A DNA stretch of 64,000 nt, taken from NCBI GenBank assembly GCA_045614025.1, contig JAZLCE010000017.1:3875-67874 (forward strand). The letters run 5' to 3'. Shown here one piece after another: positions 36,208 through 44,207 of this stretch (its first letter is position 1; every line of letters begins with the position of its first letter). A program made the position numbers and the translations under genes. Below the pieces are notes generated by a model. The model ran no database searches, had not been told where the DNA came from, and saw only the letters and a program-made list of their open reading frames with translations. The DNA comes from Alphaproteobacteria bacterium (lineage in GTDB: Bacteria > Pseudomonadota > Alphaproteobacteria > CAAHEQ01 > UBA3637).

Positions 36208-37794
36208 ATGCCGAATAATTTAACTGATATCACGAAAAAAAGACGCACATTTGCTATTATTTCTCACCCAGATGCTGGTAAAACAACTTTAACAGAAAAA
36301 TTATTGCTTTTTGGGGGCGCAATTAATCAAGCGGGCGCAGTTAAAGCAAGAGGTGAAAATAGAAGAGCACATTCAGACTGGATGAAAGTTGAACAAGAAC
36401 GTGGAATTTCTGTGGCTTCATCAGTGATGAGTTTTGAATATGGTGGGTGTTCTTTTAATTTATTGGATACTCCTGGGCATGAAGACTTTTCGGAAGATAC
36501 TTATCGTGTTTTAACGGCGGTTGATTCGGCTGTTATGGTGATTGATAGCGCAAAGGGTATTGAAGCTCAAACGAAGAAATTGTTTGAAGTTTGTCGTTTA
36601 AGAGATATTCCAATTATTACCTTTATAAATAAGTTGGATCGTGATGGTTTAGAGCCTTTTAAACTTTTAGAAGAAATTGAGCAAACTTTAGCCTTGGATG
36701 TTTCGCCAGCTTCTTGGGCAATAGGGATGGGTCGTGATTTTAAAGGGTGTTATGATTTATTAAATGATAAATTACGCTTGTTTGAAAAAGGGGCAAGTAA
36801 GTCTTCTTTACCAGTAGAATCAATTGAGCTTCATGGTATTGATGATGAAAAAATGGATGATCTTCTTTCAAAAGATGTTGCAGATACGTTGCGTGAAGAA
36901 GTTGAAATGGTAAGAGGGTTATGCCCAATATTTGATGAAAAAAGTTATTTAGAGGGATCTTTAACGCCTGTCTTTTTTGGGTCGGCAGTGAATAATTTTG
37001 GTGTTAAAGAACTTTTAGATGCTCTTGTTTCTTTTGCGCCATCACCAAGACCGCAAAGTGCAAATTTGCGCCTTGTAAATCCTGATGAAGAAAAGGTGAG
37101 TGGTTTTGTTTTTAAAATTCAGGCGAATATGGATCCAAAACATAGAGATAGAATTGCTTTTATGAGGGTTTGTTCTGGTCATTTTAAGCGTGGAATGAAA
37201 TTGATGCATTTAAGAACGCAAAAACAAATGATTTTGCATAATCCTGTTATGTTTTTGGCTCAAGATAGAGAATTAGCAGAAGAAGCTTTTGCTGGAGATA
37301 TTATTGGTATTCCAAATCATGGGGGAATGCGTATTGGTGATTCCTTTTCGGAAGGGGAGGGGTTGCAGTTTAAAGGAATTCCATCATTTGCACCTGAATT
37401 GTTAAAAAAAGTGCGTCCAAAAGATCCATTGAAGGCTAAACATTTGGCAAAAGCATTAGAGCAAATTGCAGAAGAGGGCGGTGCAAGTGTTTTTAAGCCA
37501 ACTCATGGGTTTGAATGGATTGTTGGTGTTGTTGGTGTTTTGCAATTTGAAGTTTTAGCCGATAGAATTCGAACGGAATTTGATGTTCCGGTTATTTTTG
37601 AACCAACAAGTTATTTTACAGCTCGTTGGGTGCAAGGGGATTCTTCTGAAGTTCAAAAGTTTATACAAATAAATTCTGCTTCAATGGCAACCGATCATGA
37701 TGGTGCTCCTGTCTTTTTATCAAGAAATGCTTGGCATTTAAATAAAGCGGAAGAAGATTTTCCATCAATTAACTTGTTGAAGATTAAAGAATAA
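36208..37794 (+). CDS. prfC: Peptide chain release factor 3
   Basis: RRTFAIISHPDAGKTTLTEKLL, DTPGHEDF and NKLDR GTPase motifs. 528 aa. Confidence 0.95.
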   Translation: MPNNLTDITKKRRTFAIISHPDAGKTTLTEKLLLFGGAINQAGAVKARGENRRAHSDWMKVEQERGISVASSVMSFEYGGCSFNLLDTPGHEDFSEDTYRVLTAVDSAVMVIDSAKGIEAQTKKLFEVCRLRDIPIITFINKLDRDGLEPFKLLEEIEQTLALDVSPASWAIGMGRDFKGCYDLLNDKLRLFEKGASKSSLPVESIELHGIDDEKMDDLLSKDVADTLREEVEMVRGLCPIFDEKSYLEGSLTPVFFGSAVNNFGVKELLDALVSFAPSPRPQSANLRLVNPDEEKVSGFVFKIQANMDPKHRDRIAFMRVCSGHFKRGMKLMHLRTQKQMILHNPVMFLAQDRELAEEAFAGDIIGIPNHGGMRIGDSFSEGEGLQFKGIPSFAPELLKKVRPKDPLKAKHLAKALEQIAEEGGASVFKPTHGFEWIVGVVGVLQFEVLADRIRTEFDVPVIFEPTSYFTARWVQGDSSEVQKFIQINSASMATDHDGAPVFLSRNAWHLNKAEEDFPSINLLKIKE

Positions 37795-37826: not shown

Positions 37827-37855
37827 TTGAATTTTTATCGTTGGTATGATAAAAT
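37827..37855 (+). promoter_or_regulatory. Sigma70-like promoter of the HNH-pair operon
   Basis: TTGAAT-N17-TAAAAT. Confidence 0.45.
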
Positions 37856-37885
37856 ATACGAACTTTACTTTTTTATGGGCAGAAA

Positions 37886-38485
37886 ATGATAAAAGAAATT
37901 TTAGGTGCTGAAAACAGAACTTTTACACTTCCAAGTATTCTTTATAAAGAGGAAGAAGTTTTTGTTTATAAGATTAAAAAAATTGCTAAAGAAGATGTTG
38001 CTGAAGCAAGGTTTATTTATGAGCAACTTAACTATGAAAATGATAAGCCAGTTCATGTCGTTCGAGAAATGGCAGATTTAGGCTATTTTGATGGATTGTT
38101 TAGCAATAAAGCAGTTCGTGCAGCAAAGAAAAAAGGTGTGCTCCCAGAGGGATATCAAATTCATCATATTATTCCATTAAAATTAGGTGGAAGTAATAGT
38201 GTGAAAAATCTTTGTGTTGTTGATTATGAAACACATGCAATGCTTCATCAATTAATTTATCAACCAATTATTGATAAAATGCAATTATCGGAAGAGGCTG
38301 TTTTAATTTTGCCTCCATTTGCCCGTGTGATTAAAAAAGAAGATCGTGCGAAATTCTTTTTGTTTTCAGAATTGCGTCATCATGCAATGAAGCAGGCTAA
38401 ATTAGTTTCTCATCATAAAAAAGAAAACATAAATGCAGATATGGGTTTTAGAGATGCTTATTGCAGATCAGGGCGCACGCGTTAA
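37886..38485 (+). CDS. HNH-motif nuclease-like protein, paralog 1
   Basis: LPEGYQIHHIIPLKLGGSNSVKNLCVVDYETHAMLH (HH..P..GG..N..H without Zn cysteines), then a shared ILPP motif. Confidence 0.6.
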   Translation: MIKEILGAENRTFTLPSILYKEEEVFVYKIKKIAKEDVAEARFIYEQLNYENDKPVHVVREMADLGYFDGLFSNKAVRAAKKKGVLPEGYQIHHIIPLKLGGSNSVKNLCVVDYETHAMLHQLIYQPIIDKMQLSEEAVLILPPFARVIKKEDRAKFFLFSELRHHAMKQAKLVSHHKKENINADMGFRDAYCRSGRTR

Positions 38486-38497
38486 AAAGAGGTTAAA

Positions 38498-39340
38498 ATG
38501 TATTCAAAAGGTGGAACGGAAGATAAAAAGTTTTATTGCGTGATGCAAGGTAGCTCTAAATTATGTTTTAGATTAAAACGACCACAAAAAGCTTTGTCTG
38601 AGCAAGAACGGATGACACTTGTTCGTGAGTTTGTTAAAAAGATGGCTCTAAATGGAGAATTAGATGCTTTATTAGAAAAAGCAGATCTAAGGTTGGCTAA
38701 AAAGAGTGGGTGTTTGCCAAATAAATATAATGTACACCATTATTTGCCATTATCAATGGGTGGTTCTCATCAAGAAGAAAATCTTTGTATTATTGATAAA
38801 AAATTACATCGCTGGATACATGCATATTTGCTTGATCCTATTTATCGAGATAGTAAATTTGATTTTTTGGAAGATAAAAAAGTTTATTTAATATTACCAC
38901 CTCAAAAAAAAGTGTTAACTATGAATGATGCTTCTATTTTTTTTACAGTTGAAGAATTAGAGCAAATAAAAGAAGATGAGTTAAATAATCGTGTTCCAGA
39001 ATATCTTCCGCCACAAGTGAATAACAGGGATAAGGTTTCAATACTTCGATTTGTTGAAGAATTGAAAAGAGATATGGATCTTTTTGACAAAGAAACTAAA
39101 GAAAAAAATGAAGTTATTGTTGAAAATATTATGCATAGAATAAGAGCTGAAAATAAAGCTTATCGAAAAACTGGGAAGAAAATTAGCAAATTTTGGAATG
39201 AAAGACGTGAAGGTAAAACAAGAATGCCTTTAACTCGTAAAGAAAAGGGGGAAAAATCTGCAAAAAAAGCAAGGAAAGCAGCTACAAGAAGATTTTATCC
39301 TCATTTGGCAGTAAAATGGAATCAAAAAGAAAGGTCTTAA
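38498..39340 (+). CDS. HNH-motif nuclease-like protein, paralog 2, with K/R-rich tail
   Basis: LPNKYNVHHYLPLSMGGSHQEENLCIIDKKLHRWIH plus the ILPP motif. C-terminal tail is KEKGEKSAKKARKAATRR. SD lies 12 nt after the paralog 1 stop. Confidence 0.6.
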   Translation: MYSKGGTEDKKFYCVMQGSSKLCFRLKRPQKALSEQERMTLVREFVKKMALNGELDALLEKADLRLAKKSGCLPNKYNVHHYLPLSMGGSHQEENLCIIDKKLHRWIHAYLLDPIYRDSKFDFLEDKKVYLILPPQKKVLTMNDASIFFTVEELEQIKEDELNNRVPEYLPPQVNNRDKVSILRFVEELKRDMDLFDKETKEKNEVIVENIMHRIRAENKAYRKTGKKISKFWNERREGKTRMPLTRKEKGEKSAKKARKAATRRFYPHLAVKWNQKERS

Positions 39341-39361
39341 ATTGTTTTTTAAGACTTTTTC
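39334..39361 (+). terminator. Intrinsic terminator after the HNH pair
   Basis: GTCTTAAA-TTGTTT-TTTAAGAC followed by T5. Confidence 0.65.
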
Positions 39362-39362
39362 T

Positions 39363-39391
39363 TTGACTTTTTAAATAAAAAATCATATAAT
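39363..39391 (+). promoter_or_regulatory. Sigma70-like promoter of thrS
   Basis: TTGACT-N17-TATAAT. Confidence 0.55.
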
Positions 39392-39476: not shown

Positions 39477-41402
39477 ATGATAGAAATTAAATTACCAGAT
39501 GATTCCAAACTAATGATGGAATCTGGCGTTTCAGGGTTAGATATTGCAAAACAAATCAGCGAAGGCTTGGCTAAAAATGCCGTTGCCGTTCGGGTGAATA
39601 ATGAATTAACAGATCTCACAACACCAATCACAACTAATGCATCTGTTTCAATTATTACCACGAAAAATGAAGAAGCTTTGGGGATTTTACGTCATACAAC
39701 AGCACATGTATTGGCTCATGCGGTTACGCGTCTTTACAAGGATGTTCAAGTAACAATTGGTCCTGCTATTGAAAATGGTTTTTACTATGATTTCTTTGGC
39801 ATTGTGATTAAAGAATCAGATTTGCCTGCAATTGAAGAGGAAATGAAAAAAATTGTTGCTGCCGATTATGAAATTAAACGCACAGTTGTTTCAAGAGAAG
39901 AAGCTGAAAAAGTTTTTGAAGAACGTGGCGAAAAGTATAAACTTGAAATTTTGCGTGATATGCCTGAAGAAATTAAAGAAGTTTCTTTATATACGCAAGA
40001 TGATTATGTTGAATTATGCAGAGGTCCACATTTATCTAGCACGGGAAAGGTTGGAACTGCATTTAAATTAACAAAAGTTTCCGCATCATATTGGCGCGGT
40101 GATGCAACAAAAGAATCTTTGCAACGTGTATATGGAACGGCATTCTTTAATGAAAAAGACTTGAAAAATTATTTCACAATGTTAGAAGAAGCTGAAAAAA
40201 GAGATCATAGAAAACTTGGTAAAGAAATGGATTTTTTCCATTTTGAAGAATATGCTCCAGGGGATGTTTTTTGGCATCCAAGAGGTTGGACTTTCTTCCA
40301 AACTTTGATTGATTACATGCGTAAAAGACAAAGAGAAGTTGGTTATGTTGAAGTGAATACTCCACAATTAATGAACCGTGTTCTTTGGGAAACATCAGGT
40401 CACTGGGATTGGTATCAAGAAAATATGTATACAACTGAAATTGAAGGTAAAGCCTTTGCCTTGAAACCAATGAACTGTCCAGGTGGGATGTTGATCTTTA
40501 AACAAGGGATTACAAGCTATCGTGATTTACCTCAATATATTGGTGAATTTGGTCGTGTGCATCGTAATGAAGCATCTGGTGCCATTCATGGATTGATGCG
40601 TGTGCGTGCATTTACGCAAGATGATGCGCATATTTTCTGTACACCAGAGCAATTGAAAGAAGAATTGCAAAAAGTTGTCCGCTTGATGCTCAGTATTTAT
40701 AAAGATTTTGGTTTGACGGATATGTCTATTAAATTATCAACAAGACCAAAAGAACGTATTGGTTCAGATGAAATTTGGGATATGCTTGAAAATTCATTGG
40801 CTGAAGCATTAACGGATATGGGATATTCTTATACAATTAATCCAGGTGATGGTGCTTTCTATGGTCCAAAACTTGACTTTAAGATGAGAGATGCTTTGGG
40901 TCGTGAATGGCAATTGGGTACATTGCAAGCGGATTTAAATTTGCCAGAACGTTTTGATGTTTCTTATATTGGTGAAGATGGTGAAAAACATCGTCCAATT
41001 ATGTTGCACAGAGCTTTATTTGGATCTTTAGAACGTTTTGCTGGTGTTTTCCTTGAAATTTCTGGTGGCCATTTACCATTCTGGTTGGCTCCTGTTCAAA
41101 TTATGGTTATGCCAGTTACAAATGATCAAGATGAATATGCTAAAAAGGTTGCTCGTAAATTAAATGTTGCAGGTATTAAAGCAGAAACAGATTTGCGTAG
41201 CGAAAAAGTTGGATATAAAATCAGAGAACATTCTTTGAAGAAAATTCCAGTTATTCTTGTTGTTGGTAAAAAAGAAGCAGAAGAAGAAACTGTTACTATT
41301 CGTCGTTTAGGATCTCAAGCTCAAGAAGTTAAATCTTTACAAGAGGCTATTAAAGATTTTAAAATTGAAGCAAGATATCCAAGCCTTGAATATGAAGATT
41401 AA
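39477..41402 (+). CDS. thrS: Threonine--tRNA ligase
   Basis: TGS domain, editing-domain HTTAHVLAHA, class II motifs (FRVHRNE-type GRVHRNEASG) and an anticodon-binding domain. Confidence 0.95.
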   Translation: MIEIKLPDDSKLMMESGVSGLDIAKQISEGLAKNAVAVRVNNELTDLTTPITTNASVSIITTKNEEALGILRHTTAHVLAHAVTRLYKDVQVTIGPAIENGFYYDFFGIVIKESDLPAIEEEMKKIVAADYEIKRTVVSREEAEKVFEERGEKYKLEILRDMPEEIKEVSLYTQDDYVELCRGPHLSSTGKVGTAFKLTKVSASYWRGDATKESLQRVYGTAFFNEKDLKNYFTMLEEAEKRDHRKLGKEMDFFHFEEYAPGDVFWHPRGWTFFQTLIDYMRKRQREVGYVEVNTPQLMNRVLWETSGHWDWYQENMYTTEIEGKAFALKPMNCPGGMLIFKQGITSYRDLPQYIGEFGRVHRNEASGAIHGLMRVRAFTQDDAHIFCTPEQLKEELQKVVRLMLSIYKDFGLTDMSIKLSTRPKERIGSDEIWDMLENSLAEALTDMGYSYTINPGDGAFYGPKLDFKMRDALGREWQLGTLQADLNLPERFDVSYIGEDGEKHRPIMLHRALFGSLERFAGVFLEISGGHLPFWLAPVQIMVMPVTNDQDEYAKKVARKLNVAGIKAETDLRSEKVGYKIREHSLKKIPVILVVGKKEAEEETVTIRRLGSQAQEVKSLQEAIKDFKIEARYPSLEYED

Positions 41403-42607: not shown

Positions 42608-42636
42608 TTGACAAGAATTAATGGATAATATATTAT
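42608..42636 (+). promoter_or_regulatory. Sigma70-like promoter of hipBA
   Basis: TTGACA-N17-TATTAT. Confidence 0.5.
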
Positions 42637-42673
42637 ATGTAAAAATCAAAAAACAGCATTAAGGGATAATATA

Positions 42674-42976
42674 ATGACAATTCTTTTGAAAACTCCAACA
42701 GAAGTGATGAAAGATGTTGCTTCGCGCGTCAAATCAAAGCGTTTGGCTCTTAATTTAACACAGGAAGGTATTTCGCTGCGTTCTGGTGTGAGCTTGGGAT
42801 CTTTAAAGCGTTTTGAATCAACAGGCCAAATTTCATTAGAATCTTTATTAAAGCTTGCTCATGCAGTTAATTCGCTTTCAGATTTTGAAGACTTATTTCA
42901 AACTGATATAAGTCAGGTAAGTTTATTTAACCAAAAATCAGACAATAAAGTTCGTCAAAGAGGAAAATTAAAATAA
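42674..42976 (+). CDS. hipB: XRE-family HTH antitoxin (HipB-like)
   Basis: HTH segment LNLTQEGISLRSGVSLGSLKRFE, directly upstream of hipA. Confidence 0.7.
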   Translation: MTILLKTPTEVMKDVASRVKSKRLALNLTQEGISLRSGVSLGSLKRFESTGQISLESLLKLAHAVNSLSDFEDLFQTDISQVSLFNQKSDNKVRQRGKLK

Positions 42977-42988
42977 AAAAGAGGGAAC

Positions 42989-44176
42989 ATGCGCTTAAAT
43001 GTTTATTTGAATGCTTATCAAAAAAGGAATTTTATTGGTGTTTTGGAGGGGAAAGATAAAATTTTATTTGAGTATGCCTCTTCTTTTATAAAAACGGGAA
43101 TTAATTTATCCCCTTTTATGTTGCCTTTAAAGGAGGGTGTTTTTTATGATAAAAAACAAACATTTGATGGTTTATTTGGCCTATTTAATGATTCGCTTCC
43201 TGATGGGTGGGGCTGTTTGTTGTTAGATAGATATTTGCAAAAGCAAGGTCTTTCATATTATGATATCACGCCATTACATCGTCTTTCAATTGTGGGGAAA
43301 GAAAGTTTAGGTGCGCTTGAATATGAACCGCAAGAATCGAATGATGAAGTTAAAATTGAAGAAATTGAATTAGATGAGCTTTCTTTGGGAGCGCATCAGA
43401 TTTTAGAAGGAGCGAGTTCTGATTTGTTGGATCATTTAAAGTCCTTAAATGGCTCAACAGCAGGAGCAAGACCAAAAATTACAGCACAAGTTTCTGATGA
43501 TTTTAAAATTATTCGAAGTGGAAGAACATATCAAAAAGGTTTTTCTCCTTGGATTATTAAATTTTCTTCTGACACGGATGAGCGAAATTTAGGGGCATTA
43601 GAATATATTTATTCATTAATGGCAAAAAAAGCCGGTGTTGAAATGCCTGAAACATATTTATTCCCTTCAAAAAATTCAGCAGGGCATTTTGCAACAAAGC
43701 GCTTTGATAGAGAGGGAAAAAATAAAATTCATATTCATAGTGCTTGTGGTCTTTTGCATGCATCACATCGCATTCCAACGTTAGATTATGAAAATTTAAT
43801 TCGATTAACCAGTCATTTAACTCATGATACAAGAGAAGTTGAAAAAATGGTCCGATTAATGTTTTTTAATGTTAAAGCTGGTAATAAGGATGATCATACA
43901 AAAAATTTTGCTTATATGATGACGAAAAATTATGAATGGAAAATGACTCCTGCTTTTGATATTACTCCCTCAAATGGGATTAACGGAGAACAAACAGCTA
44001 TGGTAAATGGAAAGGGAAGAAAAATTTTAAATGAAGATTTAATTGAAACGGCTAAAATATCGGGATTGCCATTGCAAAAAATAAAGCAAATACTTTCTGA
44101 AGTTGAAGAGGCTCTTTCTTTTTATCCTTTGCTTTTAAAAGAGTTTTTAGGTTATTCTGTTTTTCATTTAAAGTAA
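42989..44176 (+). CDS. hipA: Type II toxin HipA-family Ser/Thr kinase
   Basis: N-terminal coupling domain (LPDGWG), GARPK, and catalytic-loop GNKDDHTKNF. Confidence 0.85.
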   Translation: MRLNVYLNAYQKRNFIGVLEGKDKILFEYASSFIKTGINLSPFMLPLKEGVFYDKKQTFDGLFGLFNDSLPDGWGCLLLDRYLQKQGLSYYDITPLHRLSIVGKESLGALEYEPQESNDEVKIEEIELDELSLGAHQILEGASSDLLDHLKSLNGSTAGARPKITAQVSDDFKIIRSGRTYQKGFSPWIIKFSSDTDERNLGALEYIYSLMAKKAGVEMPETYLFPSKNSAGHFATKRFDREGKNKIHIHSACGLLHASHRIPTLDYENLIRLTSHLTHDTREVEKMVRLMFFNVKAGNKDDHTKNFAYMMTKNYEWKMTPAFDITPSNGINGEQTAMVNGKGRKILNEDLIETAKISGLPLQKIKQILSEVEEALSFYPLLLKEFLGYSVFHLK

Positions 44177-44180
44177 TAAA

Positions 44181-44207
44181 AAAGCGGCTCAAAATGAACC
44201 GCTTTTC
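44181..44207. terminator. Probable bidirectional terminator
   Basis: AAGCGG-loop-CCGCTT with flanking A/T runs. Confidence 0.5.

Follow-up and report, generated by a model that had tools for sequence, protein, structure and literature searches.

A 64,000-nucleotide stretch of contig JAZLCE010000017.1 (positions 3,875 to 67,874; Alphaproteobacteria bacterium, assembly GCA_045614025.1), here called the window, carries two open reading frames (ORFs), P1 and P2, on the same strand between prfC (36208-37794) and thrS (39477-41402). Our results identify them as predicted His-Me finger (HNH) nucleases by fold, catalytic residue set and paralogy, and as putative stand-alone versions of a toxin-type DNase domain. 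The two ORFs are separated by 12 nt, with a Shine-Dalgarno sequence (AGAGG) 5' of P2, and neither protein has a hydrophobic segment. The features of the locus are as follows, with model confidence given as the predicted local distance difference test score (pLDDT).

37827-37855, plus strand: TTGAAT-17-TAAAAT plus an extended TG, resembling a promoter and located 30 nt upstream of P1's start codon (9/12, a consensus match only)
37886-38485, plus strand: P1, 199 aa, predicted stand-alone HNH (His-Me finger) nuclease, isoelectric point (pI) 9.2
38144-38248, plus strand: P1 predicted catalytic core, residues 87-121, PEGYQIHHIIPLKLGGSNSVKNLCVVDYETHAMLH, with H93, H94, N108, H117 and H121; aligned to the Cas8f-HNH core
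38414-38482, plus strand: P1 basic C-terminal tail, residues 177-199, HKKENINADMGFRDAYCRSGRTR, last residue Arg; disordered, pLDDT <50; kept in orthologs
38498-39340, plus strand: P2, 280 aa, predicted paralogous HNH nuclease, pI 9.7; its C-terminal extension is long, helical and basic
38717-38821, plus strand: P2 predicted catalytic core, residues 74-108, PNKYNVHHYLPLSMGGSHQEENLCIIDKKLHRWIH, with H80, H81, N95, H104 and H108; aligned to residues 313-350 of E. coli YhhZ
39194-39337, plus strand: P2 conserved basic tail, residues 233-280, WNERREGKTRMPLTRKEKGEKSAKKARKAATRRFYPHLAVKWNQKERS; many columns invariant or nearly so even at 42% overall identity
39322-39366, plus strand: AT-rich hairpin and U run, terminator candidate overlapping the P2 stop; -15 kcal/mol, z -3.4, 0 of 200 shuffles as stable
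39477-41402, plus strand: thrS, conserved downstream neighbour of the HNH module across the order, with its own 11/12 promoter at 39363-39391

The original prediction, made from the letters of this stretch, had given the pair its own promoter and terminator. Both are plausible at the consensus level, given the 9/12 site and the hairpin, but the GC-rich terminator rule of our scanner called no terminator at the locus. Its remark that no obvious immunity gene follows the pair is correct, as no immunity-like ORF was found after P2 and the next gene is thrS.

P1 and P2 share 37% identity over 109 aa, and the BLASTP E-value of 5e-23 puts this similarity far beyond chance. Two paralogous ORFs with shared LP..HH/N/H and ILPP-type motifs had been predicted between prfC and thrS, and this is borne out: the motifs are present in P1 (86-LPEGYQIHHIIPLKLGGSNSVKNLCVVDYETHAMLH-121 and 139-LILPPFARVIKKEDRAKFF) and in P2 (73-LPNKYNVHHYLPLSMGGSHQEENLCIIDKKLHRWIH-108 and 130-LILPPQKKVLTMNDASIFF), as are the differing N-termini and the K/R-rich tail of P2. 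The residues H93, H94, N108, H117 and H121 (P1 numbering) are invariant in 19 of 19 aligned P1 and P2 orthologs, and these five catalytic or metal residues are kept without exception in orthologs down to 42-50% identity. The residue before the HH pair is I or V in every ortholog, and the core is spaced HH-14-N-9-H-4-H, which we take to be the spacing of colicin E9 (H102, H103, N118, H127, H131). There is no CxxC pair, and there are no zinc-binding cysteines.

AlphaFold2 (AF2) models of the two proteins, with mean pLDDT of 75 and 77, show a beta-beta-alpha core in each, made of strands 90-94 and 109-113 and helix 114-131 in P1, and of strands 77-81 and 96-100 and helix 101-120 in P2. Residues 41-110 of P2 are mostly modelled at pLDDT >90, with blocks 81-90 and 101-110 at 86 and 89, and the N-terminal module of both models consists of three strands and a helix. 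Foldseek searches of PDB and BFVD returned essentially HNH nucleases only, at modest E-values (5e-3 to 1e-1), including the Gme HNH nickase, Cas8-HNH, Rhs2-CT and phage HNH proteins. When ortholog profiles were compared with PDB chains, P1 matched Cas8f-HNH (E 1.8e-5), the pyocin AP41 DNase (0.0027) and a group II intron maturase (0.003), and P2 gave weaker matches (0.018-0.06). In Pfam, P1 scored 18.1 bits against HNH (PF01844), below the 21.4 cut-off, and P2 had no HNH match, while two relatives (L101 and L124) scored above it. The NCBIfam search gave noise-level matches only. Taken together, the profile searches place both proteins among HNH nucleases, and the proposed HNH/EndoVII-type core without zinc-binding cysteines agrees with these matches, with the AF2 cores and with Foldseek. 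PADLOC models matched neither P1 and P2 nor their relatives P3 and P4 (described below) at E<=1, and a defence system was rejected as an explanation.

Because all catalytic residues are kept, P1 and P2 both look catalytically competent, as far as residues and predicted fold can tell. The suggestion that one of them might be an inactive paralog of the other therefore does not hold for this pair, although an arrangement of live and dead domains does occur in relatives, either fused or in tandem.

The C-terminal domain of E. coli K-12 YhhZ, a protein with an N-terminal Hcp domain and a sub-threshold Pfam HNH match, is the closest characterised relative of P1 and P2. It aligned with the family profile at an hhalign probability of 96.7% (E 3.4e-10), and BLASTP aligned YhhZ 268-388 with P2 26-140 at 29% identity over 125 aa (E 2e-9), a span that covers the helices preceding the core as well as the "...IPP" strand that follows it. 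In an exhaustive profile search, 1002 family representatives reached E<=1e-3 and 183 reached E<=1e-10; many contain the family domain two or three times. Orthologs of P1 and P2 were found only in metagenome-assembled genomes (MAGs) of uncultured "Alphaproteobacteria bacterium" from ruminant, rabbit and human gut. Outside the order, the family was present in 22 of 298 other alphaproteobacterial genomes, mostly of 0.9-2.5 Mb, and its copies there are usually arranged in tandem. In three other alphaproteobacterial families (L122, L123, L125), one or two HNH genes are followed by a SUKH gene and then by queA, and one of these three loci is above Pfam cut-offs; the prephenate dehydratase gene pheA lies on the other side of the array in L121 and L123. 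Alignment of these SUKH ORFs, and of the SUKH-like ORF that follows P4, with the YrhA fragment of E. coli gave E-values of 5e-5 and 2e-6. Kinship with toxin nucleases, which had also been predicted, is supported by the YhhZ match together with the SUKH immunity-type genes behind the relatives. We also observed a 643-aa protein (L110:4515-6932) from an alphaproteobacterium in a JGI metagenome in which an alpha/beta-hydrolase (lysophospholipase-like) domain is joined to an HNH-family domain, with a SUKH_6 gene preceding it.

Ratios of nonsynonymous to synonymous substitution (dN/dS) were obtained by pairwise Nei-Gojobori comparison of the window with nine relatives, using unsaturated dS only. 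They were 0.06-0.09 for P1 and 0.08-0.21 for P2, as compared with 0.02-0.05 for prfC and thrS, and P2 had a dN amounting to 4-7 times the values for thrS and prfC. At 90-92% thrS identity, P1 is 53-58%, P2 41-50% and a SUKH-like protein encoded elsewhere in the genome 60-64% identical, so that the latter diverges about as fast as P1. The variable parts are the N-terminal 45 residues and, in P2, also residues ~150-230, whereas the core and the C-terminal tails are conserved. P1 and P2 are thus real genes under purifying selection, yet faster-evolving than their neighbours, and overall positive selection was rejected on the pairwise ratios.

The distribution of the family was examined by comparing the coordinates of family matches with those of thrS in 80 genomes of the order, which range from 0.7 to 2.0 Mb in size. 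The family was found in 76 of them, mostly with 2-5 copies where present. At least 35 of the 80 genomes, belonging to seven genera, have family genes immediately upstream of thrS and in the same orientation, over a range of identity to the window thrS from 99% down to 53%, and ten fetched loci confirmed this position. P1 and P2 co-occur in 10 of 10 genomes. Apart from thrS, the neighbourhood varies: genes upstream and those far downstream differ, the upstream neighbour of the module is prfC in the window and a dCMP deaminase gene in L001, and the ten fetched loci had neither prfC nor tig. The module itself comprises between one and four genes or domains of the family, and some of these are catalytically dead. 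It may be a single gene of 206-270 aa, the P1-P2 pair, three or four tandem genes of which the last is degenerate (genus g16), one protein of 373-392 aa with a dead first and a live second domain (genera g15 and g9), or, also in these two genera, a 590-aa protein with one live domain and two degenerate ones (domains 2 and 3). The fused two- and three-domain proteins argue that neighbouring paralogs act as one unit.

The linkage to thrS is strong yet not obligatory. Within the same genus, G033 had no family match near thrS, where other genes lie upstream, and G037 had none on its thrS contig, while G035, G042 and G043 carry a single family gene located away from thrS. Since the link can be missing within one genus, functional coupling to thrS was rejected, and we read the position as an inherited chromosomal slot; our literature search found no paper linking HNH to thrS. 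The divergence of P1 and P2 tracks that of thrS within the genus, which argues for vertical descent; the family is vertically inherited and occurs as tandem or fused arrays, usually located directly upstream of thrS. Two further observations concern this region. In G035 (contig C36), G042 (contig C40) and others, a thrS only ~42% identical and without the first ~60 residues replaces or accompanies the usual type, and in G035 and G042 the HNH gene is not beside it. In addition, a hipBA-like pair (HTH_3 and Couple_hipA/HipA_C) lies two genes 3' of thrS at 42608-44207 of the window (and in L002-L004) and is kept in close relatives.

The assembly that contains the window (1.57 Mb, 97% complete) encodes four family members, P1-P4, of which the last two lie outside the window. 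P3 has 152 aa (C38:10256-10714, minus strand, equivalent to L007:1453-1911) and has its last metal His changed to Asn. It starts at the recG stop in this genome, and in ~55 of 64 related loci its start is likewise no more than a few nt away from that stop; it is translationally coupled to recG and as conserved as RecG. A role for P3 as a replacement for RuvC was rejected, given that RuvC is present in 79 of 80 genomes. P4 has 235 aa and is degenerate, with the general-base His replaced (HL and not HH). It belongs to a tight operon (C27:28829-32168, locus L008) formed by virD4 (727 aa), P4 and an ORF of 148 aa (C27:31722-32168) similar to SUKH/SMI1-KNR4 proteins and to YrhA; the P4 start overlaps the virD4 stop, and the SUKH-like ORF begins 3 nt after P4 and aligns with the SUKH ORFs of the HNH-SUKH-queA loci.

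A hidden Markov model (HMM) built from the SUKH-like ORFs and run on the whole genome found the ORF after P4 as the only one. The same HMM gave no match in 11 related thrS loci. In genus g16, the additional ORF that separates the array from thrS is a further degenerate family member, and the one so placed in genus g4 had no match; a hidden immunity gene near the array was accordingly discarded. Across the order, the SUKH-like gene is present in 80 of 80 genomes and adjoins virD4 wherever coordinates were compared. VirD4 was found in 80 of 80 genomes and VirB4 in 78 of 80, whereas TssC/VipB, the sheath gene of type VI secretion systems (T6SS), was found in none of the 80. In the genome studied here, the VirD4 and VirB4 genes are on contigs C27/C28 and C36. 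In genus g9 (G024:C4, G027:C14, G018:C50, G019:C21, G021:C35), VirB4 is encoded 2-4 kb from the thrS/HNH array in divergent orientation, and this gives the arrays a second genomic connection to the type IV secretion system (T4SS).

The tails of the family were compared with the long ORFs of the window genome, using the 150 best family representatives. A C-terminal Arg was present in 54 of the 150 (36%) as opposed to 6.9% in the background (p 5e-25), Arg occurred within the last three residues in 59% versus 20%, and the net charge of the last 20 residues was +3.2 versus +0.9. These tails are disordered and basic, also in short copies and in copies paired with SUKH genes. P1 ends in ...CRSGRTR and P2 in ...KERS, with the stretch KKARKAATRR also found in P2. 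Substrates of the Agrobacterium VirB/VirD4 system carry Arg-rich C-terminal signals, and by analogy the basic tails could act as a T4SS translocation signal.

Our preferred reading, held tentatively and with somewhat less than even confidence, is that P1 and P2 are carrier-less DNase effectors kept in check by the SUKH-like protein and exported by the T4SS. In this scheme the two proteins would form a hetero-oligomeric metal-dependent DNase, and the SUKH protein would hold it harmless in the producer. The positively charged C-termini would recruit P1 and P2 to VirD4, and the proteins would pass through the T4SS into neighbouring cells, where DNA would be cut; the place beside thrS would be no more than an inherited chromosomal slot. 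A wider version, which we regard as rather doubtful, is an order-wide and vertically inherited arsenal of hetero-oligomeric, carrier-less HNH DNases with live and dead members, tagged by basic tails and exported by a chromosomal rvh-like VirB/VirD4 system. One co-evolving SUKH inhibitor, encoded beside a dead member in the virD4 operon, would control the whole arsenal, and the inhibitor and the dead member as a pair would double as an adaptor that passes the paralogs to the coupling protein.

Several points weigh against the export of P1 and P2 as effectors. No immunity-type gene adjoins them, and a single SUKH protein would have to neutralise several diverged paralogs. Vertical inheritance in fixed chromosomal slots, together with the coupling of the highly conserved P3 to recG, looks like housekeeping rather than a weapon. 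P2 ends in KERS and not in Arg, and PADLOC and Pfam put neither P1 nor P2 in a curated toxin family. The nuclease activity, toxicity, secretion and transcription of the pair are all predictions from sequence, and the idea of a T4SS signal draws on an analogy with Agrobacterium; the basic tails could equally bind nucleic acid.

This last point leads to the main rival explanation, in which a toxin-derived HNH domain was recruited for the cell's own DNA metabolism, such as structure-specific cleavage in repair or recombination, or the processing of DNA handled by translocases. P1 and P2 would then be a heterodimeric nickase or endonuclease at work inside the producer, with tails that bind DNA. 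We consider this possible but lean against it. Such a role fits the position of P3 at the recG stop and its RecG-like conservation, the coupling of P4 to virD4, which encodes another DNA-translocase-type ATPase, and the vertical inheritance in fixed slots over the whole order. It is likewise consistent with dN/dS well below 1, with the missing immunity gene beside P1 and P2 and with the basic nature of both proteins (pI 9.2 and 9.7). However, the nonsynonymous rate of P1 and P2 is 2-7 times that of their neighbours and also above that of P3, and copy number, fusion state and domain decay differ between genera. Even within one genus, some species lack the thrS-linked module or have it in another place, so that it is dispensable; the near-universal RuvC leaves no resolvase gap to fill, and relatives elsewhere are paired with SUKH immunity-type genes.

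It is unlikely that P1 and P2 resemble the degenerate P4 in being non-catalytic accessories or adaptors, either regulators or components of the VirD4 coupling complex that bind DNA or protein, with an HNH site retained only as a metal scaffold. Many family domains are indeed dead yet conserved (domain 1 in the fused proteins, domains 2 and 3 in the 590-aa proteins, the fourth gene in g16, and P4), and P4 and the SUKH gene are in the virD4 operon in every genome for which coordinates were compared. In P1 and P2, however, the constant retention of the five catalytic or metal residues down to 42-50% identity argues that the chemistry itself is selected.

The original prediction raised another possibility: in an intracellular bacterium the nucleases might be directed at the host, and the K/R-rich tail of P2 looked like a eukaryotic nuclear localization signal (NLS) or a nucleic-acid-binding tail. 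On this reading the target would be the nucleus of a eukaryotic host. The small genomes (0.7-2.0 Mb), the near-universal core T4SS, as found in Rickettsiales, and the stretch KKARKAATRR in P2 are compatible with such a role, which we nevertheless judge quite improbable. Neither an intracellular lifestyle nor the NLS found support in our analysis: the relatives are gut and rumen MAGs, and the basic C-terminal tail is a family-wide trait rather than one specific to P2, being present even in short and SUKH-paired copies. The pairing with SUKH genes counts against a nuclear target as well, because producers need such inhibitors against toxins active in the bacterial cytoplasm, and the closest characterised relative is an antibacterial effector (PMC6099711). 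Least probable of all is that P1 and P2 are free-standing selfish endonucleases of homing type that cut thrS-linked alleles lacking the array, with arrays built by successive invasions: the highly conserved thrS as sole conserved neighbour, the fast divergence and variable copy number, and an N-terminal module of three strands and a helix that resembles, though in topology only, the small modules with which HNH homing enzymes bind DNA would suit it, but the divergence of P1 and P2 tracks thrS as expected of vertical descent, the module is nearly fixed and not sporadic, the family sits at queA or pheA elsewhere with SUKH genes that a homing enzyme would not need, and thrS is intact where the family gene has moved away.

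HNH toxin domains normally form the end of large secreted carriers and have an immunity gene alongside. Here, a domain of this type occurs as small free-standing proteins that an order has long kept in fixed slots, in front of thrS and behind recG and virD4. There is a single inhibitor-type gene for all of them, and no secretion machinery other than a type IV system was found in the order. If P1 and P2 are T4SS cargo, as our preferred reading proposes, they would be the first candidate effectors, and their tails an export tag, for an abundant uncultured gut and rumen group. If they act inside the cell, they would clearly exemplify the domestication of a toxin domain for use in a cell's own DNA metabolism.

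Among known systems, the comparison with YhhZ and YrhA is the closest. YhhZ is an Hcp-HNH fusion of the "Hcp-ET1" type, and Hcp-ET1 is an antibacterial HNH DNase delivered by the T6SS (PMC6099711). P1 and P2 have a domain homologous to its HNH domain, which like theirs falls below the Pfam HNH cut-off, and the SUKH-like ORFs of the window genome and of the relatives match the YrhA fragment. Unlike YhhZ, P1 and P2 have no Hcp carrier, and delivery by a T6SS was rejected because the sheath gene was found in none of the genomes of the order. Each is a short protein that stands alone, has an N-terminal beta/alpha module of its own and carries a basic C-terminal tail; proteins of their type occur as paralog pairs, arrays or fusions, and the two are inherited vertically beside thrS with no SUKH/YrhA-type gene adjoining them.

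The DNases of colicins E7 and E9 and of S-type pyocins (Tox-ColE7; HH, H, H), which have been listed with Imm-SUKH partners (Zhang et al. 2012, PMC3482391), resemble P1 and P2 in the cysteine-free HH...N...H...H core. P1 and P2 gave weak profile matches to pyocins AP41 and S8, and some relatives had sub-threshold matches to Pfam Col-Pyo_DNase (best E 6e-4). In contrast, P1 and P2 themselves matched neither Col-Pyo_DNase nor Colicin-DNase in Pfam, and, unlike in colicins, receptor and translocation domains are missing, and the locus has neither an Im7/Im9-type immunity gene nor a small downstream ORF. The likeness to AHH-type toxin nucleases that had been suggested at first was not sustained. 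The Tox-AHH signature is [AG]HH, N, H, H, Y (PMC3482391, Table 2), whereas P1 and P2 have I or V before HH, and Pfam AHH gave no match at E<=10.

Cas8f-HNH of the type I-F HNH Cascade (PDB 8ydb, 8w1p) was the best profile match among solved structures, over 35 core residues, and was among the top Foldseek matches. The likeness is confined to the catalytic core, however, and P1 and P2 have no CRISPR-Cas context. Sub-threshold matches to T6SS_Tdi1_C (PF08906) overlap the HNH core in P1 (37886-38485) and in the relatives L101 and L107, and PDB 6itw (Atu4351/Tdi1) has a low rank in each of the two Foldseek lists, at 28-33% identity across 36-47 columns. A reading as Tdi1-like immunity proteins was set aside, since the Pfam matches (E 0.0013-0.06) are below the cut-off and fall on the same stretch as the HNH core, for which the HNH assignment is much stronger; the Tdi1 C-terminal domain and HNH cores may be distantly related.

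Xanthomonadales deliver antibacterial effectors (X-Tfe) through a T4SS and protect themselves with cognate inhibitors (X-Tfi). Unlike X-Tfe, P1 and P2 have no XVIPCD-like domain, and a short basic tail, often with Gly/Ser-Arg at its end, is the candidate signal; unlike X-Tfi, the inhibitor-type gene is a single one, placed in the virD4 operon and not beside each candidate effector. If P1 and P2 are indeed exported effectors, the analogy would lie in the principle that both systems would share, that of a VirB/VirD4 machine exporting toxic enzymes by means of a C-terminal element while inhibitors protect the producer.

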